NCBI GenBank assembly: GCA_963170185.1
Contig: CAUJGS010000111.1
Span: 1 to 16,952, forward strand
Source of the DNA: Bdellovibrionota bacterium
GTDB taxonomy: Bacteria > Bdellovibrionota > Bdellovibrionia > Bdellovibrionales > JAMPXM01
Direction of reading: 5' to 3'
DNA: 16,952 nucleotides
How positions within the stretch are numbered: position 1 is the stretch's first letter; each line of letters begins with the position of its first letter. Position numbers and translations under genes: made by a program. Positions 1-13,939 of the stretch are shown in pieces. The notes under the pieces are model-generated. The model was not told the DNA's origin. It saw only the letters and a list, made by a program, of their open reading frames with translations, and did not search any database.

Positions 1-230
1 TTTCTATGAACCAAGACGTCGACATGTACGCGGCCAAAGCTCAAGACGAAGGCGAGAAGACTTTGAAAACGTATGCTCACCGCCATCTCTGGGTGCAGGT
101 TGTAAAGGGGCAGGTCATGGTCGATGGTGTCGGGCTTCAAGCAGGAGATGGAGCTGGGATATCTAAGGTCGAGACCCTTAAGCTGAAGTGGGGCAAAGGC
201 AGTGAGTTCCTCTTGTTTGACATGCCTTAG
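1..230 (+). CDS. 3' fragment of a cupin/pirin-like protein; the 5' end lies outside the window
   Basis: The ORF runs in from the window edge, so the annotated ATG at 6 is probably internal. The motif HRHLWVQVVKGQVMVDGVGLQAGDGAGI resembles a cupin beta-barrel strand pair as in pirin/YhhW-type proteins. Stop codon at 228-230. Confidence 0.4.
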   Translation, partial: SMNQDVDMYAAKAQDEGEKTLKTYAHRHLWVQVVKGQVMVDGVGLQAGDGAGISKVETLKLKWGKGSEFLLFDMP

Positions 231-238
231 AGAAAGTC

Positions 239-277
239 GCCTCATTGTTTGCCTCAAGGTGAGGCAAACAATGAGGC
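239..277. repeat. Perfect 18-bp inverted repeat with a 3-nt loop (GCCTCATTGTTTGCCTCA-AGG-TGAGGCAAACAATGAGGC); possible terminator or protein-binding palindrome
   Basis: Read directly: positions 239-256 are the exact reverse complement of 260-277. A CGTTTTTG run follows at 291-298. The element lies 9 nt after the cupin stop codon. Confidence 0.55.
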
Positions 278-392
278 TCGGGCCGCGGGGCGTTTTTGTC
301 GGACCGACCAAGGTCCTGAGATTTGCGACCGAGACTCCTGCGAGACGCGAGTTTCTCATTGAAGGTATTGAAATTGCCGATATTTACCTAAG

Positions 393-2507
393 ATGGCTGA
401 CATCAAATGGCTGGTTAATCCAGGCGATCGGATCGATCACTTCACTGTCGTTTCGCATATTGGAGCGGGCGGCATGGGGCAGGTTGTTCTTTGTCGGGAT
501 ACGAACCTCAAACGTGATGTCGCGCTTAAGCTCATCGAAAAAGAAAATCAAACGGCAGATGAAACAGTTGTTCGTTTCTTTCAAGAAGGCCAGCTACTGG
601 CTCGATTGAATCATCCCAATGTCACGACGATCTACTCTTTTGGAGAAACCGAAGGGTTTGTCTACATGGCGATGGAGTACGTGAAGGGGGATCCGCTTCA
701 TAGTCTTATTCGACACAATCGTCTCAGCTTTTCCGAGATGCGAGAAATCACTTTGGATGTCGCAATGGGGCTACGTGAGGCTCACAAGCTGGGAATCGTT
801 CATCGAGATATAAAACCGGCCAATATTCTTGTAGATACCAATGGCAGGGCGAAGCTGATTGACTTCGGTATTGCCAAGAGTCTCGTTTCGGCCAGTGACC
901 TCAATACGCGAACAGGCACTATCGTAGGAACACTTAATTACATCGCACCCGAAGTTTTAGCCGACAATCCGGCGACTCAGCAAAGTGATATCTACGCCCT
1001 CGGCCTCGTGCTTTACGAGATGATCACGGGCGCGACGCCATTTTCTGCGACGAGTTTGGTGGGCACTTTGGACAAGATTAATAGGTCTTCTTTGGACTAT
1101 CCGGGCCACCTAGAGCCGCTGTTGCCCATTGAACTACGAAAGGCAATAGATCGGGCTTTAAAGAAAGATGTAGCCTTACGCACGGCCTCCATCGATGACT
1201 TCATTCGCGACGTTGAAGCGATTGATTTGTCTCATATCCCGAAGTCTTTCTTGAAGCGGTTGCGTCGAATCGAAGTAGGAAACTGGCGGGCTGTTCGTTC
1301 GCATTTGGAAGACCACAGTATTCCGCGTGCCGAGTGGCCGTTCATTGTTTCCCATGCGCTAAGCACCGCGTCTCCCGAGTCTCGGGCCATCAATCCAGCT
1401 ATCGAGGATCCTAGTTCGACTCAGAAAATTGAGTTATATGGGTCTTTGGATTTGAACACATCTTTGATTGAAAGTTCGATCAAAGATTTTAGACAGATCA
1501 GAGATCGTGCACGTGCGAACCACCGTCGCCCAAAAGTCGAGAGCAAAAAACCCGCTTTAGGTGTAGCTGTTTCGGCCTTCGCGGTGCTAGCGGTAGCGCT
1601 GGCGGCTTTTGCCCTTTATCCAAAGATTCATTCGGAACAGGTCGTGACCGGTATCAAACCTTTGCAACGGAATGCTGCTTCGGTTGTGCCAAAAGATAAG
1701 CCCGTTGAACGAGAGCAAGGGATTTCAGCTAGCCACACGGCAATCGTGAAACGTCTTCGAGAATTAGGTGTTGGAACGATCTTAGAGCCTGAGCGTCCGG
1801 TCAGTCAGGATACTTGGCCCCCGGTTCCGTTTCCCAACCCTCGTTTGGGCATGAGGCTTGTTTTTGGTGAAAGCCAAATCCATTCGACTGGCACTGTTGA
1901 GCGCGAGAAGCAGTTGTGGGAACTCGTGGCTTTTGATCGGCGCACACTGAAGTGGCGCGGCAGCAAAATTGACGCCAATGGAAACGAAATCGGTGCGCCG
2001 TTTTATGTTTGGAACCGCGTGAATGGAAACCTCGCTTCGATGATTCGCTCCGAGAATCACCATATTTTTGGCGATTCGCTGCAGACAATCGTCGGAAGGC
2101 CGGAAGCTCTTTTCCCTTTGAGAAAGGATAAGGCCGTCTTTTTCGAGCGTGTTAGCGAATCACATCGGAACACACCGGAGAAGTACGCCGAGTTTTCTAT
2201 GAAGACATTCTGCATCGTTGGCGATAAAGAATACCTGGATTTAAGAGGCGGGCAGCACGATGTCGTTCGGATCGATTGCTACCTGAACAATGGTTTGCGC
2301 CCAGACATTTACTACTACTCCGAAAAGTTCGGGATCAGCATTGTGTGGCGGGCTCAGCGTGGTGTTGGAGCGGGCAAGGTCATGACCGAGTTCATGCGCG
2401 AGCTGGAAGAGGTTCTCGATCTGGGGGCTGGCCTTAGCTATGCCGACTATTTAAAAGGGATCGATTCGACCCCTGTTGTCGACTACACGGGAAAACCCAA
2501 CCCTTAA
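393..2507 (+). CDS. Hanks-type Ser/Thr protein kinase with one transmembrane helix and a ~300-aa extracytoplasmic C-terminal domain of unknown function
   Basis: Kinase motifs are present: GAGGMGQV (P-loop), VALK, HRDIKPANILV (catalytic loop), DFGIAK, and the activation-loop APE. A hydrophobic segment ALGVAVSAFAVLAVALAAFALY lies mid-protein. The C-terminal 300 aa contain no motif I can name. Confidence 0.9.
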   Translation: MADIKWLVNPGDRIDHFTVVSHIGAGGMGQVVLCRDTNLKRDVALKLIEKENQTADETVVRFFQEGQLLARLNHPNVTTIYSFGETEGFVYMAMEYVKGDPLHSLIRHNRLSFSEMREITLDVAMGLREAHKLGIVHRDIKPANILVDTNGRAKLIDFGIAKSLVSASDLNTRTGTIVGTLNYIAPEVLADNPATQQSDIYALGLVLYEMITGATPFSATSLVGTLDKINRSSLDYPGHLEPLLPIELRKAIDRALKKDVALRTASIDDFIRDVEAIDLSHIPKSFLKRLRRIEVGNWRAVRSHLEDHSIPRAEWPFIVSHALSTASPESRAINPAIEDPSSTQKIELYGSLDLNTSLIESSIKDFRQIRDRARANHRRPKVESKKPALGVAVSAFAVLAVALAAFALYPKIHSEQVVTGIKPLQRNAASVVPKDKPVEREQGISASHTAIVKRLRELGVGTILEPERPVSQDTWPPVPFPNPRLGMRLVFGESQIHSTGTVEREKQLWELVAFDRRTLKWRGSKIDANGNEIGAPFYVWNRVNGNLASMIRSENHHIFGDSLQTIVGRPEALFPLRKDKAVFFERVSESHRNTPEKYAEFSMKTFCIVGDKEYLDLRGGQHDVVRIDCYLNNGLRPDIYYYSEKFGISIVWRAQRGVGAGKVMTEFMRELEEVLDLGAGLSYADYLKGIDSTPVVDYTGKPNP

Positions 2508-2582
2508 GCATTGCTAGAGAATCAAGGATATCATGCCGGGTAAGTTGCTGCGGCGGACTTTTTCATTTAGATTAGTCTTCGA

Positions 2583-3284
2583 ATGAACTTCTTCCGCTTC
2601 GGATTTCGCCAAATGCTTCCCGTGATGACCGGCGTAATTCCGTTTGGAGCAGTGATGGGGACGGCCGCTCACGAGGCGGGTCTTTCGGTGTGGCACTCGA
2701 CATGGATGAATGTTCTTGTCTTCGCTGGTGCCTCGCAGCTCGCGGCTGTTGATCTCATGACAAAGAATGTCTCTCTTTTGGTCGTCGTCGCAACCGGTCT
2801 CGTTATCAATCTTCGTTTCATTCTTTACAGTGCCGCGTTTTCGCCATTTGCGCGAGAAGCGGGATGGGGAACAAAACTTCTAAGTGCCTACATGCTGACC
2901 GACCAAAGTTACGCCGTGATGTCAGCCAATGAGGCACATTTTCGCAATAAACAAGATGCTCTGACTTTTTATTTCGGCTCTTGCGTCTGCATGGCGATTG
3001 CGTGGCATCTTTCCGTGCTTGCGGGATTTTATTTCGGCAACTTTTCGCCTCGTGACTGGGCGCTCGACTACGCGGTTCCTTTGAGCTTCGTGGTTTTGGT
3101 CATCCCCACATTGAAGACCTGGAAACATAGAGCTGTCGCCGTTTGTTCCGGGGTTTTTGGTATTTTGTTCCGCGATCTTCCGCTCAATGTCGGTTTGTTG
3201 GTGGCGGCCTTTTGTGCGATGGCGGTTGCGCTGTTGTTGATGCGCCTAGCTGGTTTGACGAAATCGGTTCGAGGTGCGCGATGA
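2583..3284 (+). CDS. azlC: AzlC-family branched-chain amino-acid exporter permease
   Basis: Polytopic membrane protein. The N-terminal pattern MLPVMTGVIPFGAVMG...LVFAGASQLAAV is typical of the AzlC/LIV-E family. It is followed by an azlD-like gene with a 4-bp ATGA stop/start overlap. Confidence 0.75.
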   Translation: MNFFRFGFRQMLPVMTGVIPFGAVMGTAAHEAGLSVWHSTWMNVLVFAGASQLAAVDLMTKNVSLLVVVATGLVINLRFILYSAAFSPFAREAGWGTKLLSAYMLTDQSYAVMSANEAHFRNKQDALTFYFGSCVCMAIAWHLSVLAGFYFGNFSPRDWALDYAVPLSFVVLVIPTLKTWKHRAVAVCSGVFGILFRDLPLNVGLLVAAFCAMAVALLLMRLAGLTKSVRGAR

Positions 3285-3607
3285 TCGACAACGTCTACTT
3301 CTGGAGCGTGGTAGCCTTGCTTGCGATCGGCACATTGCTGATTCGGTTCTCGGTGATCGCGTTCTCAAACCGCTTTGAAATCACAGATCGGCACCGCGAG
3401 GTTTTCTCATATATTCCGGCTGCGATCATTCCGGCTATCGTTGTACCGATGGTGTTCTTTCATAAGGGCAACCTAGATTGGTTGGCTGGCAAAGAGCGTC
3501 TGTTTGTCGTTGTGCTGGCGGCGGCGGTTTGTTGGTTCACGCGAAACATGCTCGCGACCATCGTCTTTGGTCTGGTTACCCTTTATCTCCTCACGCATAT
3601 TTTTTGA
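3281..3607 (+). CDS. azlD: AzlD-family small membrane protein, partner of AzlC
   Basis: About 108 aa with 3-4 hydrophobic helices. The start ATG at 3281 overlaps the azlC TGA (GCGCGATGA). The longer ORF from 3143 listed in the track would overlap azlC out of frame, so it is not used. Confidence 0.65.
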   Translation: MIDNVYFWSVVALLAIGTLLIRFSVIAFSNRFEITDRHREVFSYIPAAIIPAIVVPMVFFHKGNLDWLAGKERLFVVVLAAAVCWFTRNMLATIVFGLVTLYLLTHIF

Positions 3608-3758
3608 ACGTCACGACGTGGAAAGTGTACTCGTCACTCAGGGCGAGACTCCTTGAACGCGCGTTTAAACGCGATTCGGCGAAAATCACGTCATGGCACA
3701 AGTATTTCTAAGTCTCCTTAAACAACACCCTCAAGTATCAACTTAGGAAGGAGCAGTT

Positions 3759-4208
3759 ATGGCCGACAACTCGGTAAACAACGACCACTCGCTACGTGAA
3801 CTCGTGGCGCAGACGTTTGTCATTTACATGAAGACCTATGCGCTTCATTGGAACTACGAAGGGCAAAAGTTTTTTGGAGTGCATTCTATGACGGAGGCCC
3901 AATACGAGGAACTCGCGGCTGCGATTGATGTTTTGGCCGAAAGGATGCGGGCCATGGGGCAGTCGACACCTGTTTCCTTGCGTCAAATCTTAGAGAGCTC
4001 GCATATGCGAGAGCTTCGCGAGGCCTCAGATGAGCAAGCACTTAAGGATTTGGCAAAATCCAATCGCCAGATCAGTCAGCTCGCTGCAAGTGTCGCGGAA
4101 ATGGCCGAGAAGGTTGGGGATCACTACACGCACGATCTCGCCGTTAGTCGAATCGGCGTTCACGATAAACACGCTTGGATGATCGAGAGTTTCTTTAAGG
4201 CGCACTAA
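3759..4208 (+). CDS. dps: Dps (DNA-binding ferritin-like protein from starved cells)
   Basis: 149 aa. The ferritin-like ferroxidase region (FVIYMKTYALHWNYEGQKFFGVHSMTEAQYEEL) matches the Dps family. A strong RBS GGAAGGAG lies 6 nt upstream of the ATG. Confidence 0.85.
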   Translation: MADNSVNNDHSLRELVAQTFVIYMKTYALHWNYEGQKFFGVHSMTEAQYEELAAAIDVLAERMRAMGQSTPVSLRQILESSHMRELREASDEQALKDLAKSNRQISQLAASVAEMAEKVGDHYTHDLAVSRIGVHDKHAWMIESFFKAH

Positions 4209-4227
4209 AACAAAAAAGGGGTCAAAC

Positions 4228-5598
4228 GTGAGACATCAAGTAAAACACAGAAATAAATATGCCGGTGGCCTGTCGGTTCTTGCAATGTTGGCGATGGGCG
4301 CTTGTGCAACCCATGAACGAGCGGTTTTGCCAGCGGACGCCAACCCTCAGGTGGAGATCGAGAGGGTTGAAACAGACCTAGTTGCGCTTGGTAAGCGTCA
4401 TGGCGCTTTGCTTTCGCCAGATAGCTACGAACGTGCGATCGAGTACACGAAGGACGCACGCGAAGCAATGGAAGACGGGGATCGCGAAGAGGCGTTAGAC
4501 GATGTGGCTGTCGCGCGCGGCGCTTTGGTGAAGGTCTCCGCCAATGTCGAGAACTTCACGCCGCAATTGCTACCGGTGCTTGAGGCGCGAGCGTTTGCCT
4601 TGGATGCGGGAGCCAATGTCGTAACGCGTGATTCGCTGGACGAAGCCGACAAAGATTTAAGAAGGATCGGTCACCGTATCGAAGGCGGGAAGTTCGTGAT
4701 GGATCACGAGCGCGACACGGAGCTTGCGACGAACTATCGTAGAATCGAAATCGAAGCGAGAAAGACGACGGTTCTGGGTGAGAGTCGCGAGATCTACAAA
4801 AGGGCTGTGGCCGAAGGGGCCGAGAAACACACCGCTAAGTTGGCGGCGGAGACAAAACAAGCTCTGATTTTGGCTGAGCAAGCTATAGAGAGAAGCGTGC
4901 GATCGCCTGTTGGATATCAAACCGAGGTGAAGATCGCCGAGGGGTTAAGTCGAAAGCTTCGCGATGTTCTGGCCTTGGCAAGACAGGACAAAGTCAGTGA
5001 GGAGGTCGCATTAACCTTGTGGAGCCAGAAAAATGAAATCACACGCGTGCAAGACAAGCTCGATACGCAGACGCGTTTGGTGAGTGATCAGCAGCGAGAA
5101 GTAGGCGACCTCAAGCAGGAAAATGCCGAGCTTTCCGCTAAAGAAGAGATCGATCGCAAAATCAATGCGGCTCGCGAAGGGTTTGCCGCCAATGAGGCAG
5201 AGGTCGCCAAGGTCGGGAACAATGTCGTGGTTCGTCTAAAGGACATCGGTTTCACATCTGGAAGTGCCGAGCTCAAAGTGAAATCGCTCGACACCTTGGA
5301 TAAAGTGGCGGAACTGGTGGCGCAAATGCCAGTGGCGAAAGTCGTCGTTGTCGGCCACACGGACTCCAGTGGTACTCTGAAAAAAAATATGGAGATCTCC
5401 GAGGAGCGTGCGTTGGCCGTGCGAAATTACTTCGCAAAGCAAGCGCAGTTCAAAGATGTGGAGATCGATAGCCGCGGGGTAGGTCCGCAAAGACCTATCG
5501 CACCAAATAACACGGCCGAGGGTCGCGCGGCGAACCGTAGGGTTGATGTCGTGATAGAAACCAGTGCTGGCGCTTCAGGTCGGACGGTGAGTTTGTAA
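4228..5598 (+). CDS. OmpA-family lipoprotein with a long central coiled-coil
   Basis: GTG start with RBS AAAAGGGG. The N-terminus LSVLAMLAMGAC is a signal peptide ending in Cys, so lipoprotein-like. The central region is coiled-coil rich. The C-terminus carries an OmpA-like peptidoglycan-binding domain (VVVGHTDSSG...EERALAVRNYF...NRRVDVVI). Confidence 0.8.
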   Translation: MRHQVKHRNKYAGGLSVLAMLAMGACATHERAVLPADANPQVEIERVETDLVALGKRHGALLSPDSYERAIEYTKDAREAMEDGDREEALDDVAVARGALVKVSANVENFTPQLLPVLEARAFALDAGANVVTRDSLDEADKDLRRIGHRIEGGKFVMDHERDTELATNYRRIEIEARKTTVLGESREIYKRAVAEGAEKHTAKLAAETKQALILAEQAIERSVRSPVGYQTEVKIAEGLSRKLRDVLALARQDKVSEEVALTLWSQKNEITRVQDKLDTQTRLVSDQQREVGDLKQENAELSAKEEIDRKINAAREGFAANEAEVAKVGNNVVVRLKDIGFTSGSAELKVKSLDTLDKVAELVAQMPVAKVVVVGHTDSSGTLKKNMEISEERALAVRNYFAKQAQFKDVEIDSRGVGPQRPIAPNNTAEGRAANRRVDVVIETSAGASGRTVSL

Positions 5599-5898
5599 CC
5601 AAGCTTTGAAATCGGCCAACAGTCGTTGGCCTTTTTCGCGAACTTCACTATCCAAGAGCGCCTCCATCTCGCGGGCTATACCCTCGGCTTCCGGAAAGCC
5701 AAAACTACTGAGGTTGCCCGCGAGCTGATGGCCAATACGACGAAACTCATCTCCGCTTCCAGATGTAAGACTTGCTTCTAGAACCTCGACGTCGGCCACG
5801 CGCCGGTCGAGATAACGTTCAATCAAGGCTTTTGGGAGTTCATCGTTTTCCATCCGCAATTTATAACGTGGATTTCTCGGAACTTCAAAGTCCATCAT
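5575..5898 (-). CDS. Single-domain Hpt (histidine phosphotransfer) protein
   Basis: FRRIGHQLAGNLSSFGF matches the Hpt helix consensus H-x-L/K-G/A-x-x-x-x-G with the phosphorylatable His. The start is uncertain: the track ORF begins at a TTG at 5928, and the first ATGs are at 5898 and 5895. The 3' end overlaps the convergent OmpA-like gene by 24 bp. Confidence 0.55.
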   Translation of the reverse strand: MMDFEVPRNPRYKLRMENDELPKALIERYLDRRVADVEVLEASLTSGSGDEFRRIGHQLAGNLSSFGFPEAEGIAREMEALLDSEVREKGQRLLADFKAWLQTHRPT

Positions 5899-6000
5899 TT
5901 GAACTTCGCTACGCGAAATCTTCGTCAAAACGAAATCAGTCGGTGTTTAGGATGGAGGCGCTTTTGCACATCTTCCAGGAAACGCGGTTTAAAGGAGGAC

Positions 6001-6456
6001 ATGAAGGTGTTTAATTTGGGACAGAGTCTGATTTCCAGCACGATTCGAAAGTTCTGTTTGGGTCTCGTCCTAAGCGGAGTCCTCATCTTCTTTGCGATTC
6101 GAATGTTCTCACTGGCCGAAAACCTGGTGGATCCCGAATGGTTTTCTCAAGCGAACTTGTTCGGGCTTTATAGTCTCGGGTTTTTAGCTGGTTTTGCGGC
6201 ATTGCTTTGGATTTCGCGAGACGAGCGAGATCCAGGAAAAGGTGATGCCAAGTCAGCCGAGCGTTTTTCGCAAAGAGCCAATGGCGGTCTTGAATTGTCG
6301 TTTGAGGCGATCGCGGCGGAATTCGCGGTGGGTCTTATCGAGGGTCTCAAAAGCAAAGAGCCCGTGGGCGCCTCCGGCGATGTCAAAGTTTCGAATGTCA
6401 GCAACCAGACCATCAACAAGGAGAATCAGTATGATTACGAAGAACCATTTCATTAA
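6001..6456 (+). CDS. Hypothetical membrane protein (2-3 TM helices)
   Basis: A perfect RBS AAAGGAGGA lies 2 nt before the ATG at 6001. Hydrophobic segments are present (LGLVLSGVLIFFAI, LYSLGFLAGFAALLWI). No recognisable family. Confidence 0.5.
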   Translation: MKVFNLGQSLISSTIRKFCLGLVLSGVLIFFAIRMFSLAENLVDPEWFSQANLFGLYSLGFLAGFAALLWISRDERDPGKGDAKSAERFSQRANGGLELSFEAIAAEFAVGLIEGLKSKEPVGASGDVKVSNVSNQTINKENQYDYEEPFH

Positions 6457-7027
6457 ATCGATATCTTGTGCGGCCGTGTTGGCTTCGAGTTTCATTTTGT
6501 CGGAAGCTTTAGCTGATGTCGATACCTCGCAAACGTCATCGGCTGTCGTGCCGATGCGCCCTGTGGCGGAGGAGTCGGAGCTTCGTCCTCACGTCGGGGT
6601 CATGATGGGTGTTGCCAATCCGGACGGCGCGATGTCGACAACGCCGCTTTATGGGGTTGATATCGGGTTTCAGCCGTATGTTCCGTTCTCTGCCGGTTTA
6701 GAGCTTTCGCGCAGTGATGTCAGTCATGGCGCTTCCGCCGAAAGAAACGAGCGTACTTTGGCGCTTGCGAAAGCCGCTTACAATTTTGGTGGAACCATTC
6801 CGATCATCAAAGACTCCTATGTGGGAATCGGTCTTGGCGCTTCTATGAATGTCGACGGCACGAATCTCATCTCAGGTCCACTGGCGGGTTTTGACGTGAA
6901 GCTGACCAACGGTTTGCTTCGTGACGAGGATCGTGTCTCGCTAGGGGCTTTGGCAAAGTACCTTGTCCAAGAAGGGGAAGAGCCCAACCTTCTTGCGCTG
7001 ACCGGCATGGTGAAATACTGGTTCTAG
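6431..7027 (+). CDS. Small outer-membrane beta-barrel protein (OmpW/OmpA-barrel-like) with signal peptide
   Basis: RBS AAGGAG lies 7 nt upstream. Signal peptide SISCAAVLASSFILSEALA-DV. Alternating amphipathic beta-strand pattern and a C-terminal ...KYWF (terminal Phe is the OMP sorting signature). The annotated ORF from 6194 would overlap the upstream gene, so the internal start is used. Confidence 0.6.
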   Translation: MITKNHFIKSISCAAVLASSFILSEALADVDTSQTSSAVVPMRPVAEESELRPHVGVMMGVANPDGAMSTTPLYGVDIGFQPYVPFSAGLELSRSDVSHGASAERNERTLALAKAAYNFGGTIPIIKDSYVGIGLGASMNVDGTNLISGPLAGFDVKLTNGLLRDEDRVSLGALAKYLVQEGEEPNLLALTGMVKYWF

Positions 7028-7104
7028 TAATTGGGTTCAATAGTTGAACGTAAAAGTTCAAGCCTTCCACTCGACTAACTCGAAAAACATGTCAGATGAA
7101 AATA

Positions 7105-7134
7105 AGACCCCGCTCATGCGGGGTCTTTGCTTTG
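7105..7134 (+). terminator. Rho-independent terminator after the OMP gene
   Basis: AGACCCCGC-TCAT-GCGGGGTCT hairpin followed by TTTGCTTTG. Confidence 0.7.
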
Positions 7135-7168
7135 CAATACTAATTCACCATCAACCAAGGAGGACACA

Positions 7169-7426
7169 ATGTCTATGAACACAAATATCGCTCAAGGCAA
7201 ATGGCGTGAGATCAAAGGTGAAATCCAGAAGGCGTGGGGCAAGCTCACAGATGACGAGCTGGAGAAGACCAAAGGCGACGCCAAAGCGATCGCGGGAATT
7301 TTGCAACAAAAGTATGGCCGTGCCGAAGAGGATTTCAGCGAAAAGCTTGGAAGCATCTTCAGCCGATTTGAAAACACCCGAGAGCGGGCGACCGAGAACT
7401 TCAAGGACACCTTGAAGCGGGTTTGA
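7169..7426 (+). CDS. CsbD-family general stress protein
   Basis: RBS AAGGAGGA. The sequence IAQGKWREIKGEIQKAWGKLTDDELEKTKGD..ILQQKYG is the typical CsbD repeat signature. Confidence 0.8.
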   Translation: MSMNTNIAQGKWREIKGEIQKAWGKLTDDELEKTKGDAKAIAGILQQKYGRAEEDFSEKLGSIFSRFENTRERATENFKDTLKRV

Positions 7427-7461
7427 AGAACGAGTTGGTGAATCAAGATACAGGAGGAAGC

Positions 7462-7749
7462 ATGTCAACAGCAGTAGAAAACACGATGTCGACTCTCAAT
7501 GGAGCGGGAAAGGTTTTGAAGCGAAAACTCAATGACGGCGATATGCCTGCGACGATCGAATCAATGGCGCACTCCGCCGGTAAGTCGCTAGGTGAGGTTG
7601 CCTCACAGTTTGTCGACTCTGCGGAAGACTACGCCGAAGAAGGTCGTCGTTACATTCGAAAAAACCCTTTGACTGGTGTCGCAGCGGCGGCAGCCGTCGG
7701 AATGATCGCGGGCGGTCTTCTCTCGACGGCGCTTCGTCGCTCGAGGTAG
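7462..7749 (+). CDS. DUF883 / ElaB-YqjD-like C-tail-anchored stress protein
   Basis: RBS CAGGAGGA. It has a C-terminal TM anchor GVAAAAAVGMIAGGLLSTAL. The overall layout matches the ElaB/YqjD/YgaM family, which is often adjacent to csbD-like genes. Confidence 0.7.
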   Translation: MSTAVENTMSTLNGAGKVLKRKLNDGDMPATIESMAHSAGKSLGEVASQFVDSAEDYAEEGRRYIRKNPLTGVAAAAAVGMIAGGLLSTALRRSR

Positions 7750-7789
7750 TCAAAACGGCTTTATCCCCAAAAAAGCCTTACCCCTCCAA

Positions 7790-7830
7790 CCCCGATCGAT
7801 GACCCTCGATCGGGGTTTCTTTTTTCTTTT
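7790..7830. terminator. Bidirectional rho-independent terminator between convergent genes
   Basis: CCCCGATCGA-TGACCC-TCGATCGGGG hairpin. It is flanked by a T-run on the plus side (TTTCTTTTTTCTTTT) and an A-run upstream (CCCCAAAAAAGCC), which reads as U-rich for the minus-strand gene. Confidence 0.7.
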
Positions 7831-7840
7831 GCGAGAGGCG

Positions 7841-9307
7841 CTAGGAAAGCAGGTTTTCGCCGGTCGCGATTTTCAGGCGCTTGTACAGAGTTTTGCGATC
7901 GACTCCGATTTCTTTAGCTGTTCGGTCTTTGGCGCCAGCATTTTTGGTTACAGCGAATTGGATGTAGGAATTGATCATGTCGTTGAGCGACGGAAGCGTC
8001 CCGCTGCAGTCGACGCGAAAGTACTGTCCTGAATCGACGGCCGATGGATGTTCAAACGAGGACTGCGCGGTTCTCGTTTGTGACTTAAGCTGGCTCTCCA
8101 TGGCGTTTGGCATAAGGTCTGCGATATCAATTTCGTTTGTTTGTGTGAGCACGGCCGCACGTTCGATCGTGTTTTCCAACTCGCGCACGTTGCCATTCCA
8201 TGGATGACTGAGAATGAAACGAACAGCCTCTTTCGTGAAGCCGGTGATCGGAGCTTGGTTCTCGGCGGCAAATTTTTTTAAAAAACCCTCTGCCAGCGGC
8301 AAGATGTCTTCTTGGCGTTCGCGAAGTGGCGGAAGGTGAATGGGAATGACATTGAGACGGAAGAAGAGATCCTCTCGGAACTGACCGGTTGCGACCATTT
8401 CAGAGAGATTTTTATGAGTGGCGGAGACCAGTCGACAGTTGATATTGCGGTCCTGATTCTCACCCACGCGACGAATCTTTCGTTCCTGTAGGACGCGAAG
8501 AAGTTTTGCTTGAAGTGGAAGACTTAGGTCACCGATCTCATCAAGAAAGAGGGTGCCATCTTGTGCTTCTTCGAAGAGGCCAAGTTTTTTTTCGTTGGCT
8601 CCTGTGAAGGCCCCTTTTGCATGGCCAAAGAGTTCGGATTCCAGAAGGGTCTCCGGAATAGCCGAACAGTTGATGGCTATGAAGGGGCCTTTTTTGTTGA
8701 GGCTTGAAGTGTGGATGAAGCGTGCGAAGACTTCTTTTCCAGTTCCGCTTTCGCCGGTGATGATAATGTTTGATCGGCTTTTGGCGACCCGCTTGGCGAG
8801 ATCAACAGCGGCCAGAAAGGCGGCGCTCTTTCCGATCATGCCATTTGCCGACGCGGCTTTGGTTTCGATCTGCGATTGTAGATTTACGAGGTCTCGACTG
8901 AGTGTTTTGATATGGAGAGCTCGTTCAACGGCGATTTGCAGTTGCTGCAAATTAAGTGGCTTGATTAGGAAGTCGTAAGCTCCTTCTTTGATGGCCTCGA
9001 GAGCCACTTCGGTGCTTCGGTTTGTCGTGATCAATATGACCGGCGTCTGCGGGGCTGTCTCTTTCATCTGCGCGGTGAGTTCGACGCCCGACATTTTTGG
9101 GAGGCGCAGGTCCGATAAAATCACGTCCCAGGTTTCGCTGGATTTCTCACCGTCGGCGATGGCGGATTCGGCATCGCCGAAGCAGATGACTTCGAATCCG
9201 CGCGGCTTAAAAAACGCTGAGATCAGATCCTGAGTGTCGAGATCGTCATCGACCACGACAATTTTTTTCTTCTCCTTTTCGGTCTTTATATCTGCGCGTG
9301 CGTCCAT
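7841..9307 (-). CDS. NtrC-family sigma-54-dependent response regulator (REC + AAA+ + Fis-type HTH)
   Basis: The N-terminal receiver domain (KIVVVDDD...ILSDLRLPKMSG) has the acidic pocket and phospho-acceptor Asp. The AAA+ region has Walker A GESGTGKE, the GAFTGA sigma-54 contact motif, and an arginine finger region. The C-terminus has an HTH. RBS GAGGAG upstream. Confidence 0.9.
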   Translation of the reverse strand: MDARADIKTEKEKKKIVVVDDDLDTQDLISAFFKPRGFEVICFGDAESAIADGEKSSETWDVILSDLRLPKMSGVELTAQMKETAPQTPVILITTNRSTEVALEAIKEGAYDFLIKPLNLQQLQIAVERALHIKTLSRDLVNLQSQIETKAASANGMIGKSAAFLAAVDLAKRVAKSRSNIIITGESGTGKEVFARFIHTSSLNKKGPFIAINCSAIPETLLESELFGHAKGAFTGANEKKLGLFEEAQDGTLFLDEIGDLSLPLQAKLLRVLQERKIRRVGENQDRNINCRLVSATHKNLSEMVATGQFREDLFFRLNVIPIHLPPLRERQEDILPLAEGFLKKFAAENQAPITGFTKEAVRFILSHPWNGNVRELENTIERAAVLTQTNEIDIADLMPNAMESQLKSQTRTAQSSFEHPSAVDSGQYFRVDCSGTLPSLNDMINSYIQFAVTKNAGAKDRTAKEIGVDRKTLYKRLKIATGENLLS

Positions 9308-9645
9308 GTTCGACTCCTCTTCCGGCTGTGTTTGCTAACATGTTTGGTCGTTTTCTACCCATTTATACGATCAAAAAATGTACTCAGCAGCCCCAGCCTT
9401 TTTAAACACATGTATAATCAGATACTTACAGGAAACATGCTGCCGAATTCACCAAATTGGCACGTGCAATATTCGCACAAAGGTCCATTTAATGGACATA
9501 TAAACGTTCAAAAAGAGTACTTTCTGCGTGGCGACGTCTGCCAGATCGAAATAAACAAGGGAAGAGAACTGGTTTCGAGGTTGCTACTACCTCTATCAGC
9601 ATCAAATTGCAGGCTTAACAGCAGCTATGTGGAAAGGGGAATTTT

Positions 9646-9828
9646 ATGATCCGTGCAGCGTTGGGATTCTTTGTACTCGCGGTTTTAGCATTCGTTCTCG
9701 GAGCGACCGGTGTCGCTGGCCTTTCGATGGAAATTGGCAAGACATTGCTCGTCGTATTTGCGGTGTTGGCCGTTCTTTCTTTCGTCGTCAGCCTCGTAAC
9801 AGGGCGAAGTCCGAAGCAGCTACCTTAG
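9646..9828 (+). CDS. DUF1328-family small membrane protein
   Basis: 60 aa with two hydrophobic helices (ALGFFVLAVLAFVLGATGVAG ... LLVVFAVLAVLSFVVSLV). RBS AAGGGGA. Resembles the YtjA/DUF1328 stress-associated small protein family. Confidence 0.6.
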   Translation: MIRAALGFFVLAVLAFVLGATGVAGLSMEIGKTLLVVFAVLAVLSFVVSLVTGRSPKQLP

Positions 9829-9875
9829 CGGCATTCTTGAAACCGACATTTTGAAAACCGAACGGAGGATTAAAC

Positions 9876-10172
9876 ATGGAAAACACAATCAACTGGAAAA
9901 AAGAAGTCTTCACTCGAGCTCTTGCGATTGTCGCAGTTTGCGGATTCTGGAGCGTCGCCTTCGCTGAAGAGACTGCGATGGAGAAAGCCGAGACTCAGGT
10001 GAATGAAGCCGTCGATACCACAAAAGAAACGTATCGCGACATGAAGGATAAGGTTTGTGAAACCGTAAATGGCAAAGTCGAGTGTGCGGCCAAAAAAGTC
10101 GCAAACAAGGCTCGCACCTTGAAAGACAAAACCGAAACGAAGGCGAAAGAAATCAAGAACAAGGTGGACTAA
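9876..10172 (+). CDS. Small secreted Lys/Glu-rich protein (hypothetical)
   Basis: RBS GGAGGA. Signal peptide LAIVAVCGFWSVAFA-EE. The mature part is charged and low in complexity. Confidence 0.5.
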   Translation: MENTINWKKEVFTRALAIVAVCGFWSVAFAEETAMEKAETQVNEAVDTTKETYRDMKDKVCETVNGKVECAAKKVANKARTLKDKTETKAKEIKNKVD

Positions 10173-10173
10173 G

Positions 10174-10815
10174 ATGAAACAGCAGCTAGCGAAAATACAA
10201 CTGAGACTCTCGATCGTGGCCGCAAGCTTGTTAGCTCTTGGACTTGCGCTGTCGTTTGCCGAGTCTGCCAAGGCTGATGTCGGCCTCTTCGTGGAGCCGA
10301 GTCTCACCTATGAACTTGGCGATACGAAGATCAACTACCCAGCGCCATTTTCAGATTCGACGGGGAAACTTCAAGGATTTGGAATCGGAGCGCGACTTGG
10401 GATGCATGTGAGCGAAGCGATCTTCGTTGGCCTCGACGGTCGGTATAGCATGCCGAAGTTCACGGATTCGTCGGTGAACTATGATGCGGCGGCGACTGCG
10501 ATGAACTACGGACCGGTCGTGGGGATTCAGATGCCAGACATTGGCCTTCGTCTTTGGGGAGCATATGTCCTCGGCGGCGATGTGAATCCGGATGCGTCGG
10601 GAAATCTCGATGTGAAAATGACCGGTGCTCAAGGTTACCGCCTTGGCGCGGGCTTCCGGGTCGCGGCACTAAGTCTCAATCTTGAGTATCAAGACTTGCG
10701 CTATGACAGCACGACCCTGGAGCAAATCGGACCGTTTACCGGTGGAAGCTTCGACAGCGTGAAGCTCAACCAGAAGTCGTGGATTGCAAGCGTATCATTT
10801 CCGCTCGAGCTCTGA
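10174..10815 (+). CDS. Secreted putative outer-membrane beta-barrel protein
   Basis: Signal peptide LSIVAASLLALGLALSFAESAKA-DV. Alternating hydrophobic beta-strand pattern with Gly/aromatic girdle residues. It lacks the canonical terminal Phe (ends LEL), so the barrel assignment is tentative. The ATG follows the upstream stop by 2 nt. Confidence 0.45.
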   Translation: MKQQLAKIQLRLSIVAASLLALGLALSFAESAKADVGLFVEPSLTYELGDTKINYPAPFSDSTGKLQGFGIGARLGMHVSEAIFVGLDGRYSMPKFTDSSVNYDAAATAMNYGPVVGIQMPDIGLRLWGAYVLGGDVNPDASGNLDVKMTGAQGYRLGAGFRVAALSLNLEYQDLRYDSTTLEQIGPFTGGSFDSVKLNQKSWIASVSFPLEL

Positions 10816-10835
10816 TCAGAGCTTAGCACTCTTCG

Positions 10836-10875
10836 CGGACTCCCTTCATGACAGGGAGTCCGTGCCTTTTTTGTT
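10836..10875 (+). terminator. Rho-independent terminator
   Basis: CGGACTCCCT-TCATGAC-AGGGAGTCCG 10-bp stem followed by TGCCTTTTTTGTTT. Confidence 0.75.
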
Positions 10876-11045
10876 TCCCTCAATAAGAGTTTTCGAGAAT
10901 GAGTCTGGCGGAAGCTTATCAAGATGTTCTTCGAACGCCTCGCGCGGAGATGGCGCGAAGTGTTTGGGAACGAAAGCAAGGATTCCCGATACCAGCGGCC
11001 GTCCGCCTTGTCTGGGGAAACTGGTCCAGTCTCAGGCTTCTGATT

Positions 11046-12164
11046 TCACTTTTGGCGTGATACCAGATTCATCAATTGTTCGAGACCACCGACAACATTG
11101 ATTGCCTGAACTTTGTCGCTCACCTTCTCGATGCTTTCCATCTCCTTTAAGCGCATGAGAACGGGGCTCGATTCGATCAGCCTTGCTGTGTTCAGCAGTG
11201 AGCGTGTAGCGGCGACCTCTTCGCGTCGGCGAATGAGATTTGCCTGAGCTTGTTTTTCAGACGCTACGACTTGGTTTAAGATCTCGCGGATATCTCCAGG
11301 AAGAATGATGTCGCGTACACCGGTGCTCGTCAGTTCTATGCCGACTCGGACGGCAAAGGGTGCCGCTTGTTCAAGGACCTCTGTTCCGAGAGATTCTTTC
11401 GTCGCCAGAACTTCGTCTAATGTTCGGACGCCGATGGCCTTTCGCAGTGCGAACTGTAGCTCTTTGTAGAGCAGGTCCTTAGCGTCTTGTGATTCCGTTA
11501 CGAGTTTTTCGGCATCGGAGACGCGATAGTGCGCATCGAGATTTAGCCGAATCGAAACGCGATCTTTTGTGAGGATCTCTTGCCCGCTGACTTCGAGGTT
11601 CTGAGTGCGCATGTCGATAGCCACGACATTGAGAGTGGATTTCCCTTTCCAGTAGGTGCAAGGGCCTGGTGCGAGCTTTTTTACTAGGCGCCCGTCGGCA
11701 AACAGCAGGCCGAGTGAACCTTCTGGGATGATCTTGTGAATGAACTCTTCGGAATCAGGCTGTTGGTGCATCAGCAACTTCGCCTGTTCGGCGGGGATCT
11801 CTTGCCAATCGGAAAATGCAATGTATTCGACCCGAACGTCTTTGAGGATTTTCCAGAAGAGCTTTCGTTGCCCGGGGCCGACGATGCGATGGAATTTTTC
11901 ATCGACGTAGATGAGGGCGGTTTGGTGGTCTGAGGTGTCAACGACAGTGAAGTACTTTGTCACCAGTTGCGGATGCCATTTGATAAGTGCAGAGGCCCAC
12001 GGTCCGAGAAACTCCGGCTCGTTGACGTCGTATTTCAGGACGGTTTCTGGTGAGATTCCGAATGAACTGAACGTCCAATGGCGACCGGGTTCTAGGATTC
12101 CAGTGATGCGACCGTTTTTGATTTTGAGACCGCGTTGTGTTTCGGTGATTTCAACTTTTTTCAT
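11046..12164 (-). CDS. Soluble SPFH/band-7 (stomatin/prohibitin-like) domain protein with a ~170-aa N-terminal domain of unknown function; last gene of the rtcB transcription unit
   Basis: The C-terminal half shows the SPFH pattern (LTKDRVSIRLNLDAHYRV.D..K......D....L.......LR...G..TLDEVL..KE....EVLE........GIEL...GVRDIILPGDI...L.......AEKQA.A..I...E). No N-terminal TM helix is present, which is unusual for this family. RBS GAGG lies 7 nt upstream. It is on the same strand as, and downstream of, rtcB and the ncRNA. Confidence 0.7.
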   Translation of the reverse strand: MKKVEITETQRGLKIKNGRITGILEPGRHWTFSSFGISPETVLKYDVNEPEFLGPWASALIKWHPQLVTKYFTVVDTSDHQTALIYVDEKFHRIVGPGQRKLFWKILKDVRVEYIAFSDWQEIPAEQAKLLMHQQPDSEEFIHKIIPEGSLGLLFADGRLVKKLAPGPCTYWKGKSTLNVVAIDMRTQNLEVSGQEILTKDRVSIRLNLDAHYRVSDAEKLVTESQDAKDLLYKELQFALRKAIGVRTLDEVLATKESLGTEVLEQAAPFAVRVGIELTSTGVRDIILPGDIREILNQVVASEKQAQANLIRRREEVAATRSLLNTARLIESSPVLMRLKEMESIEKVSDKVQAINVVGGLEQLMNLVSRQK

Positions 12165-12198
12165 ATATACCTCGTGTGAGTTTTTTGTTTAAGCAAAC

Positions 12199-12241
12199 CT
12201 CGGGGGCGGGGCCGTCGGCGTTTGGCCGCAAAGCCCCCAAG
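12199..12241 (-). terminator. GC-rich hairpin (candidate intrinsic terminator or attenuator, or the ncRNA 3' end) between the tRNA-like RNA and the SPFH gene
   Basis: On the minus strand: CTTGGGGGC-(25 nt, GC-rich)-GCCCCCGAG, then GTTTGCTT. The stem pairs fully only in minus-strand RNA (a T-G wobble there would be a C-A mismatch on the plus strand). The U-tract is weak. Confidence 0.3.
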
Positions 12242-12280
12242 TTTGGGAGTTCCGAATGAGAGTGCGGCCTTGCCATCGGC

Positions 12281-12425
12281 TTTGCTCTCAAGCATTCCTC
12301 CATGGACATTCATTCGAGAAACGACTTCGTTTTCAAAGTACGGACACTCTACCAGCTGAGTTACTGAAGGTGACTTCAGGCGGGAATCGAACCCGCGACA
12401 ATCCCTGTTTCTCAAGAGAAGCAAA
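12281..12425 (-). ncRNA. Permuted tRNA-like structured RNA (Y RNA / YrlA-like tRNA mimic) encoded between rtcB and the SPFH gene
   Basis: Minus-strand read, in tRNA numbering. Anticodon-stem 3' strand AGGGA, then variable loop TTGTC. T-arm GCGGG-TTCGATT-CCCGC (T54 T55 C56 G57 A58 present). The acceptor 3' strand CTGAAG is joined directly to the 5' strand CTTCAG through a TCAC tetraloop, so there is no discriminator or CCA. Then U8 A9, and D-arm ACTC-AGCTGGTA-GAGT (A14, G18 G19, A21 present). G26, then TCCGT, which pairs with AGGGA with one mismatch. The module is enclosed by a 7-bp helix GAGAAAC/GTTTCTC and an outer 9-bp helix TTTGCT(T)CTC/GAGAGCAAA with a single bulged U. The ends are approximate: structured sequence extends from the rtcB stop (12492) to about 12190. 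Confidence 0.55.
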
Positions 12426-12492
12426 TTCGGCATACGCTCTCGGCAGGGCCGTGCGCACCCGCTAGGGTTTTGAACCTAGGCGATAGAACTCG

Positions 12493-13698
12493 CTATCCCT
12501 TAACGCACACCACCTGTTTGAGGGTGTGTACGATTTCAACCAAATCTGACTGTGCGGCCATCACTGCATCGATGTCCTTGTAGGCGGCGGGTGATTCGTC
12601 GATCACTCCATCGTCCTTTCGGCATTCGACCTCAGCTGTGGCTCGCTTGTGATCTTCAAGCGAGATCACTGCTCGCGCTTTTGTGCGCGACATTTTTCGT
12701 CCGGCTCCATGAGAGCAGCTGCAGAAGCTCTCTTGGTTGCCGAGCCCTCGCACGATGAAAGACTTCGCTCCCATGGATCCCGGGATAATTCCAAGATCCC
12801 CCTCGCGTGCTCGGACGGCTCCTTTGCGTGTAACATAAACGTTCTCTCCGTAGTGATGTTCAAGCTCGACGTAGTTGTGATGGCAATTCACAGCCCGCTC
12901 GAGAAGCGTGAAGGGCGGAATGCCTTTTTGGTGTCGGAGTCCCGCCACAACCCGGTTCATCATGAGCTCGCGATTCAGGCGCGCGTAGTTTTGAGCCCAG
13001 TACACGGCTTCGACGTAGTCGTTGAAGTGTTCGGATCCCTCGGAGAGATACGCGAGATCTTCGTTCGGTAATTGAATGAACCATTTTTCCATTTCCTTCT
13101 TCGCCAGTTCGATGAAGTAGTGGCCAATCGCATTCCCGACGCCGCGCGATCCGCTGTGGAGCATGATCCAGACGTCTTGATTTTCATCAAGGCAGAGTTC
13201 GATGAAGTGATTGCCGCCGCCGAGTGTTCCAAGCTGCTTGTAGGTTTTTGTCTCGCGGATGCGAGGGTGGCGTTCGATAATCGATTTATAGCCGGTCTCC
13301 ATCTGGGCCCATGCCTCGAGGCATTCCTTTGGTACGGCTTTGTTGTGATAGCCGTAACCGACGGGAACGTCTCGCTCGATCTGGCCGCGGATGGAAGAAA
13401 GAGAGTCGGGCAGATCGGTTGCTCGCAGTGAAGTCTTCTGTGCCATCATCCCGCAGCCGATATCGACGCCGACGGCTGCGGGAATGATTGCGCCTTTAGT
13501 TGGAATCACGCTTCCAACTGTGGTGCCGCGGCCTGCGTGGACGTCGGGCATGGCTGCGACCCATTTATGAATAAAGGGAAGGTCGGCAAGTTTTTTGAGT
13601 TGGTTGCGAGCTTCGTCCTCGAACAAGACTCCTTTGGTCCAAGTCTTGATCAGGCCACCATTTTGAGATTCGAGGACTTCGTATTTCTGCTTCGACAT
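12493..13698 (-). CDS. rtcB: RtcB RNA 3'-phosphate/2',3'-cyclic-phosphate ligase
   Basis: 401 aa from the ATG at 13698, with RBS AAGGAG 7 nt upstream. The annotated TTG at 13719 adds 7 aa with no RBS. From memory (not verifiable here), it aligns along its whole length with E. coli RtcB (408 aa). Recognisable blocks include MPDVH.G.G...GSVIPTKGAIIPAAVGVDIGCGM, GTLG.GNHFIE.CLDE..DVWIMLHSGSRG.GNAIG.YFI, NCHHNYV, YVTRKGAV.AR.G..GIIPGSMGAKSFIVRGLGN.ESFCSCSHGAGR.MSRTKA and the C-terminus YKDIDAVMAAQSDLVE...L.QVVCVKG. Confidence 0.95.
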   Translation of the reverse strand: MSKQKYEVLESQNGGLIKTWTKGVLFEDEARNQLKKLADLPFIHKWVAAMPDVHAGRGTTVGSVIPTKGAIIPAAVGVDIGCGMMAQKTSLRATDLPDSLSSIRGQIERDVPVGYGYHNKAVPKECLEAWAQMETGYKSIIERHPRIRETKTYKQLGTLGGGNHFIELCLDENQDVWIMLHSGSRGVGNAIGHYFIELAKKEMEKWFIQLPNEDLAYLSEGSEHFNDYVEAVYWAQNYARLNRELMMNRVVAGLRHQKGIPPFTLLERAVNCHHNYVELEHHYGENVYVTRKGAVRAREGDLGIIPGSMGAKSFIVRGLGNQESFCSCSHGAGRKMSRTKARAVISLEDHKRATAEVECRKDDGVIDESPAAYKDIDAVMAAQSDLVEIVHTLKQVVCVKG

Positions 13699-13786
13699 TT
13701 TGCTGCTCCTTACTTGCAACCCTAGTCGTAACCCGCCGGCCGAATTTCGAAGAAGCGAGGCCGGCGGGGTTGACGATTTGGTGTAA

Positions 13787-13803
13787 TTGCAGTCGTGATG
13801 CCA
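13787..13803 (-). promoter_or_regulatory. Sigma-54 (-24/-12) promoter for rtcB
   Basis: The minus strand reads TGGCAT-CACGACT-CTGCA. The GG and GC dinucleotides are spaced exactly as in the consensus TGGCACG-N4-TTGCW. It lies about 90 nt upstream of the rtcB ATG and points toward rtcB, divergent from rtcR. This matches the known RtcR/sigma-54 control of rtcBA in E. coli. Confidence 0.55.
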
Positions 13804-13939
13804 GCCGGGTGTCCGGCATCGCGTATTTATATATCACATTGAATATACAGTGTTTTTCATGCTTCTCCGAAGTCTCCCCGGTCCGCGAGATATGTCATTT
13901 TATATATCTTTAGATAGAGTTTTATCTTAAAATATAAAC

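Follow-up and report, generated by a model that had tools for sequence, protein, structure and literature searches.

Why a protein of the SPFH/Band-7 family that lacks a membrane anchor should be encoded in an RNA-repair operon, directly after a tRNA-like RNA, is the question raised by a gene on contig CAUJGS010000111.1 (assembly GCA_963170185.1) of a Bdellovibrionota bacterium, analysed here over positions 1 to 16,952 of the forward strand; this whole stretch of 16,952 nucleotides (nt) is referred to as the window. The gene occupies positions 11046–12164, exactly the interval named in an earlier reading of the letters of the window (the original prediction), and is encoded on the minus strand. 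The best explanation, to which a probability of roughly 0.55 is assigned, is that it encodes an anchor-less, cytoplasmic stomatin-type SPFH protein belonging to a widespread module of Band-7 protein and tRNA-like RNA, which acts as a soluble ribonucleoprotein (RNP) scaffold in tRNA repair. Within this explanation, the identity of the gene, the lack of an anchor, the repeat architecture of the protein, the structure of the RNA and the genomic linkage are directly supported by the data presented below.

The open reading frame (ORF) begins with an ATG that is preceded at a distance of 5 nt by the Shine-Dalgarno motif GAGG, and encodes 372 amino acids (aa). Pfam Band_7 (PF01145) matched aa 144–316 (E = 5e-30, 105 bits against a cutoff of 23.6), and the AlphaFold (AF2) model, with a predicted local distance difference test (pLDDT) score of 82, displayed the SPFH alpha/beta fold followed by long helices. 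Database searches returned >7,000 full-length matches, for which the NCBI name, where given, is “slipin family protein”. Because of the Band_7 domain, the confident fold and these full-length matches, 11046–12164 is a real gene and not an orphan, and its product is closest to stomatin. By sequence, the best solved relatives were human and archaeal stomatins, with an E value of 7e-20 for human stomatin over aa 143–349, a match that takes in the SPFH domain and the coiled-coil helices after it. Foldseek searches with the full model returned stomatin (1e-15), HflK/C, QmcA, prohibitin, erlin and flotillin, and also the major vault protein (MVP), the latter in much longer alignments (430–478 columns). 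The scores on the NCBIfam equivalog models for HflK (TIGR01933, 44.8 against a cutoff of 159.4) and HflC (TIGR01932, 24.2 against 134.4) were both far below cutoff. On the minus strand, the SPFH core corresponds to 11298–11744 (aa 141–289), and the C-terminal helices with the stop codon to 11046–11297 (aa 290–332, 334–358 and 362–370 in the AF2 secondary structure). These helices contain the motif RRREE(V/T)AATR, which occupies invariant columns of the family alignment, and, judging from their alignment to the stomatin coiled coil up to aa 349, they are equivalent to the region that builds SPFH rings.

The absence of a membrane anchor, a central claim of the original prediction, was borne out. 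The Kyte-Doolittle maximum over 19 residues was 1.02 and fell in a beta strand of the SPFH core, an upstream extension of the ORF is impossible, and neither an N-terminal hydrophobic hairpin nor a transmembrane (TM) anchor was found in the protein. A TM-like N-terminal extension was present in only 4/121 family members, with 97% of the family having no hydrophobic segment; together with the low hydropathy maximum, this rules out a cryptic TM segment, which had been considered. Since only four of 121 members have a hydrophobic leader, the family is predicted to be predominantly soluble, with few anchored exceptions. In these members (P0004, P0005, P0019 and P0045) the leader comprises 17–25 residues ahead of the first repeat, and two of them are 56–58% identical to the window protein; N-termini of this kind lie at positions 6001–6075 of both locus L081 and locus L086. 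Such leaders may represent membrane-anchored variants or over-extended start calls.

These data also bear on a more conventional explanation, according to which the protein is a membrane scaffold that attaches peripherally like other stomatins and is merely co-regulated with the neighbouring RNA ligase, RtcB, in a general stress response. Characterised SPFH proteins are all membrane-associated, a TM-like leader does occur in the few relatives just described, and general-stress genes (Dps, CsbD, DUF883 and OmpA-like) are abundant in the window. However, neither the window protein nor 97% of its family has a hydrophobic segment, and no hairpin is present in the former. Among the window ORFs scanned there was no family match to NfeD, the partner gene that is a trait of prokaryotic stomatins, and the downstream gene encodes a convergent outer membrane protein (OMP) beta-barrel. 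A peripheral scaffold would moreover leave the near-universal tRNA-like neighbour of the family, described below, unexplained, and this explanation is considered very unlikely.

Ahead of the SPFH domain lies an extra N-terminal region of ~140–143 aa, modelled by AF2 with a pLDDT of 90. The original prediction had taken this region for a novel domain of ~170 aa; it is smaller, at ~140 aa, and the hhalign, Pfam and HflK matches given here identify it as an internal duplication of the N-terminal beta unit of the SPFH domain itself. The region is made of two similar units, in each of which short helices follow a small beta sheet: repeat R1 (aa 1–71; 11952–12164, minus strand), a beta-hairpin unit with short helices that copies the SPFH N-terminal element, and repeat R2 (aa 72–140; 11745–11951, minus strand), a second copy of that unit. 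In profile-profile comparisons, R1 and R2 showed homology with one another and also with the opening ~50 residues of the SPFH domain (probabilities of 97–97.4%, pairwise E values of 1e-10 to 1e-11); specifically, hhalign gave 97% and 1e-10 for R1 against R3, the start of the SPFH domain. The isolated N-terminus further matched positions 2–35 of Pfam Band_7 at aa 5–42 (E = 0.011) and residues 99–133 of HflK (E = 0.26), and the Foldseek result taken by itself was not significant. Because R1 and R2 are homologous to the start of the SPFH domain, the protein has three tandem copies of one unit, the third of which (aa 143–192, within the SPFH core) opens the SPFH domain.

This architecture extends across the family. 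Three copies were counted in 108 of the 121 family proteins and five copies in nine, and a profile of the N-terminal region retrieved 1,559 clusters at 50% identity. Longer relatives of 586–894 aa had 6, 7, 9 or 11 detected copies, and one protein of 924 aa had 6; all of these long-repeat relatives finish in the same module of SPFH domain and helices, and all are without a TM segment. Examples with 6–11 copies are P0126 (894 aa), P0161 (787 aa), P0132 (637 aa) and P0232 (586 aa), and the loci examined for this group were L092 and L093.

Upstream of the SPFH gene, a gap of 328 nt separates it from rtcB. When the window was searched with ARAGORN and with Rfam at gathering thresholds, no RNA was reported. 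A permissive Rfam search gave a match to YrlA (Y RNA-like; RF02553) at 12335–12410 on the minus strand (E = 2.5e-9), with a score of 46.4 bits that is below the Rfam gathering score of 69 and that covers only model positions 17–92, the tRNA-like domain. The corresponding element, at 12338–12408 on the minus strand, is a circularly permuted tRNA-like module of the YrlA type, with an outer stem, a T-arm, a closed acceptor-like hairpin and a D-arm. In an alignment of the module from the window and its close relatives (six copies in all), RNAalifold found compensatory changes in 13/20 pairs. The helices of the module were paired in 92.5% of cells, versus 33–47% with slid partners, and the observed covariation was reached by 0/500 shuffles. 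A covariance model, R1, scored 84 bits on the module; this model also scores junctions of tandem tRNA genes, and matches below ~45 bits were not counted as permuted modules. The sub-threshold YrlA match and the covariation together sustain the claim of the original prediction that the SPFH gene comes directly after a tRNA-like RNA.

The module is part of a larger conserved structured RNA region at approximately 12255–12489 on the minus strand, for which 17/42 pairs of the consensus fold covaried in an alignment of six clade members. This region contains a 5' hairpin (~12460–12482), a second hairpin, the tRNA-like module and a 3' hairpin. Positions 1–16 and 93–114 of the YrlA model, taken as the Ro60-binding stem, were unmatched, which is consistent with the absence of Rsr, the Ro60 protein of the Salmonella rtc operon. 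A 90-aa ORF lying over the RNA (12161–12433) matched no family and was discounted as a gene. In the close relative at locus L081, two tandem permuted modules (72.5 and 89.6 bits with covariance model R1) were seen between rtcB and the SPFH gene at 5715–5861, an arrangement that recalls the paired YrlA/YrlB RNAs of Salmonella. Across the family, YrlA-type permuted modules are limited to the clade of the window and a few others, most elements being tRNA mimics of standard order. In addition, complementary conserved boxes, GCATCGAGGTG(A/C)CC and ...CACCTCGACCTATT, were observed between the tRNA-like element and the SPFH start codon, within the 400 nt upstream of the start, in loci L016, L021, L034, L036, L037, L039, L057, L065, L073 and L078. 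This suggests that the boxes form a long-range stem, making the upstream RNA larger than a tRNA mimic.

The genes on the far side of this RNA confirm that the SPFH gene is a member of an Rtc operon. The RNA ligase gene rtcB lies directly upstream on the same strand (12493–13719, minus strand; Pfam RtcB E = 6.8e-129); its ORF reaches a TTG at 13719, and the start chosen by gene callers on an identical contig is the ATG at 13698, giving 401 aa. Upstream of rtcB, a pattern search found a sigma-54-type −24/−12 box, TGGCATCACGACTGC, at 13803–13789 on the minus strand, which is a consensus match only. The divergent gene at 13940–15532 (plus strand) encodes RtcR, an activator with CARF and sigma-54 AAA+ domains that scored 757 bits on NCBIfam RNA_repair_RtcR (cutoff 650) and matched Pfam RtcR and Sigma54_activat. 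The gene order is thus RtcR, sigma-54-like promoter, RtcB, structured RNA and SPFH. A consensus scan of the minus strand from rtcB to the SPFH gene revealed no terminator-like or sigma-70-like site, and no match to RtcA or to Rsr/TROVE was obtained among the window ORFs scanned.

The linkage of the SPFH gene to rtcB, for which a co-occurrence check had been proposed in the original prediction, was found at both short and long evolutionary distances. In a close set of five relatives with complete loci (48–58% identity; a sixth relative was cut by a contig end), the order RtcR, RtcB, gap (~330–625 nt) and SPFH was present in 5/5 loci, and it was also present on the longest contig that encodes an identical protein. 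A more distant set of 80 loci (39–46% identity) was obtained from a species-level genome collection with an alignment-based scan, a scan with a single-protein query having given nothing. Within 6 kilobases (kb), RtcB was encoded in 21/80 of these loci and RtcR in 5/80. We estimate that chance alone would place one gene within such a 12-kb span of a multi-megabase genome in well below one of 80 loci, and for this reason the RtcB linkage is real and far above chance, yet not obligate.

The association with the RNA was tighter still. A T-loop motif on the same strand was present ≤700 nt upstream of the SPFH gene in 71/80 distant loci, with none on the opposite strand, and ARAGORN called a tRNA-like element upstream in 67/80 loci versus downstream in 1/80. 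These upstream calls covered 18 anticodon classes plus 11 aberrant loops, and the element was located 185–637 nt (median 352 nt) upstream of the SPFH start. The SPFH protein therefore has its tightest partner in the tRNA-like RNA and not in RtcB. Given RtcB in 21/80 loci versus a tRNA-like element in ~70/80, the true unit is tRNA-like RNA plus SPFH protein, often recruited to loci of RtcB, RtcR or RlaP-type nucleotidyltransferases.

The position of the element invites the explanation that the RNA acts only in cis, as an element that processes, stabilises or regulates the transcript and not as a partner of the protein, for example as an RNase P/RNase Z “punctuation” site that splits rtcB from the SPFH mRNA, or as a 5' untranslated region (UTR) sensor of SPFH translation. 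The element is always on the same strand and, at the distances just given, within the likely 5' UTR; no promoter or terminator of its own was detected near it by the consensus scan of the window; and it was not detected in some family members. On the other hand, the tRNA shape is conserved while the identity of the anticodon loop is unconstrained, and the module of the window is of the permuted YrlA type, for which the Salmonella RNA is reported to co-purify with Rsr (bioRxiv 10.1101/312249); each of these two points is by itself compatible with a cis role. Further conserved helices surround the module as well. A purely cis-acting element is judged unlikely.

In 10/80 distant loci, arrays of 5–25 ordinary tRNA genes on the same strand were found immediately upstream of the module of tRNA-like RNA and SPFH gene. 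These are L004 (1533–5670), L013 (1124–5593), L014, L016, L026, L029, L058, L062, L068 and L069; RtcB is nearby in five of the ten, and L004 additionally has an RlaP-like nucleotidyltransferase. Such loci suggest islands that join spare tRNAs with tRNA repair. In ~1,629 of 5,426 complete E. coli genomes (~30%), a full-length homologue named “slipin family protein” (38.7% identity) is encoded between yjbD and lysC, with a nucleotidyltransferase gene after it. An RlaP-like nucleotidyltransferase adjoins the SPFH gene in both E. coli and Citrobacter, and in Citrobacter RtcR is divergent. The E. coli island (loci L089 and L091) is absent from K-12-type strains and in some cases includes a zeta-toxin gene, and a RelE/ParE-XRE pair stands, with the divergent RtcR, beside the island at the Citrobacter locus L090.

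Such neighbours bring in a further explanation, in which the tRNA mimic serves as a decoy or sensor: it would be bait for tRNA-targeting toxins such as anticodon nucleases, its cleavage would feed the RtcR signal or titrate the toxin, and the SPFH assembly would serve to sequester bait, toxin or tRNA halves and not to aid ligation. This fits the pairing of the SPFH gene with the tRNA-like RNA more than with the ligase, the tRNA arrays, which would suit a response to tRNA depletion, the sensing of broken tRNAs by RtcR, and the frequency of toxin-antitoxin genes among the neighbours. Set against it is the fact that Salmonella YrlA was uncleaved under tRNA-cleaving conditions. Moreover, no phage homologues of the SPFH protein were found, and neither this protein nor RtcB matched a PADLOC defence family, results that leave a phage or defence-system origin unsupported and that also count against a toxin bait. 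The decoy explanation is considered improbable.

The pairing of gene and RNA has a precedent. The abstract of Burroughs and Aravind 2016 (Nucleic Acids Res) is said to present a novel tRNA-like molecule and SPFH/Band-7 modules as cofactors with a potential scaffolding role. As relayed in the portion of Wang et al. [quoted passage not shown] No experimental test of the pairing of Band-7 protein and tRNA-like RNA was found in the literature since the 2016 prediction. The gene-RNA pairing is thus a published comparative-genomics prediction, and the window locus adds a new example to a known system that is unexplored by experiment. Both features of that system, a Band-7 gene adjoining RtcB and a predicted tRNA-like RNA, are found in the window and nothing essential differs, the RNA of the window being of the permuted YrlA type in place of a b7a-tRNA of standard order.

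Comparison with other known systems places the locus more precisely. With the Salmonella rsr-yrlBA-rtcBA operon it shares RtcR/sigma-54 control, RtcB and an operon RNA with the same permuted order of T-arm, closed acceptor and D-arm; it differs in having no match to Rsr/TROVE or RtcA and no match to the positions of the Ro60-binding stem, so that the SPFH protein stands in the place of Ro60. With stomatin, PH1511, QmcA and HflK/C, the window protein shares the SPFH fold and the long C-terminal helices, but it is without a membrane hairpin or TM segment, lacks NfeD and FtsH as partners, and carries two additional N-terminal repeats. In Pseudomonas aeruginosa PA14, the SPFH protein PaFlo8 (PA14_60630) is encoded within the rtc locus with RtcA, RtcB and RtcR, according to a 2026 study (PMC13086221); it is presumed to be of the same subfamily as the window protein.

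Taken as a soluble RNP scaffold, the SPFH protein might work as follows. In the literature, the activators of RtcR are 5' tRNA halves with a terminal 2',3'-cyclic phosphate, so that tRNA damage producing such halves would activate RtcR. A single transcript would then give rise to RtcB, to the tRNA-mimic RNA, which would be processed out, and to the SPFH protein. We infer that the C-terminal helices would mediate oligomerisation of the protein to form a soluble ring or cage, and that the protein would bind the tRNA-like RNA and would take part in repair, the resulting RNP scaffold concentrating or presenting broken tRNAs or tRNA-handling enzymes to the RtcB ligase. Such a scaffold is favoured because of the analogy with Ro60-Y RNA complexes of Salmonella rtc operons, and because the helices conserved here are those by which every solved SPFH protein is assembled into rings or cages.

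Several observations weigh against this explanation. RtcB was not encoded nearby in 59/80 distant loci, and four close or moderately close relatives have a TM-like N-terminal extension. The window protein is not notably basic, with an isoelectric point of 7.8 overall and 6.5 for the N-terminal region. No tRNA-like RNA was detected upstream of the E. coli homologue with ARAGORN and Rfam, upstream of the Citrobacter homologue with ARAGORN and covariance model R1, or in the non-coding upstream gaps of 0.45–1 kb of the two long-repeat loci L092 and L093. In the literature, no experiment on RNA binding, oligomerisation in solution or an effect on RNA repair was found for any family member. In addition, the deletion of paFlo8 was without phenotype in general assays of growth, virulence, motility, biofilm and oxidative stress (PMC13086221).

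The repeats allow a bolder form of the scaffold to be formulated, although one that is held as doubtful. In MVP the domain order, with tandem beta repeats, an SPFH-like shoulder and a long helix, resembles that of the window family, and MVP is likewise soluble and membrane-free; the repeat number of the window family reaches 9–11, and the likeness is an architectural analogy only. Specifically, no Pfam match to the MVP/vault repeat family was obtained with the full SPFH protein (E ≤ 0.01) or with its N-terminal 140 aa (E ≤ 1), the only match being to Band_7. Vaults contain small RNAs and a TROVE protein. Because a variable number of repeats before an SPFH “shoulder”, together with a long helix, recalls MVP, a membrane-free capsule is suggested, and by this analogy the family could conceivably be a bacterial vault-like capsule that encloses or displays a tRNA-shaped RNA and acts with RtcB or RlaP on damaged tRNAs. 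The SPFH domains and C-terminal helices would form a closed cap, as in stomatin or HflK/C cages, two to ~10 extra N-terminal beta repeats would form a barrel wall whose height varies by lineage, and two halves, or an open rim, would close without a membrane. If true, such a capsule would be a prokaryotic counterpart, and possibly a forerunner, of the vault ribonucleoprotein.

The remainder of the window contains genes that look like a general-stress neighbourhood around the operon. These include genes for Dps/ferritin-like, CsbD-like, DUF883 and DUF1328 proteins and for a small apolipoprotein-like helical protein (within 3759–4208, 7127–7749 and 9646–10172), an OmpA-family protein (4228–5598) and a second sigma-54 response regulator on the minus strand (7841–9307). 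At 393–2507, a 704-aa protein has an N-terminal Ser/Thr kinase domain (Pkinase E = 1.8e-57) followed by a long uncharacterised C-terminal region. Between the OMP beta-barrel gene (10174–10815, plus strand) and the SPFH gene, a strong 12-bp GC-rich hairpin with a T-run is located at 10834–10864; this hairpin probably terminates the OMP gene and may serve both convergent genes.

Because the idea of a Band-7 protein paired with a tRNA-like RNA was published in 2016 and no test of it was found in the literature, the value of the present locus is practical and not conceptual. What is added here is the repeat architecture, a well-supported RNA structure and a clean operon, and the repeats suggest a testable assembly model, for which E. 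coli isolates, Citrobacter and P. aeruginosa would be tractable hosts. SPFH proteins are regarded as membrane scaffolds, and the family described here would represent a large soluble branch, of ~1,500 clusters at 50% identity, that is linked to tRNA-shaped RNAs and to genes of RNA repair. If true, this RNA-linked soluble branch would widen the range of functions of SPFH cages, and it would provide bacterial tRNA-mimic RNAs with a second protein partner besides Ro60.

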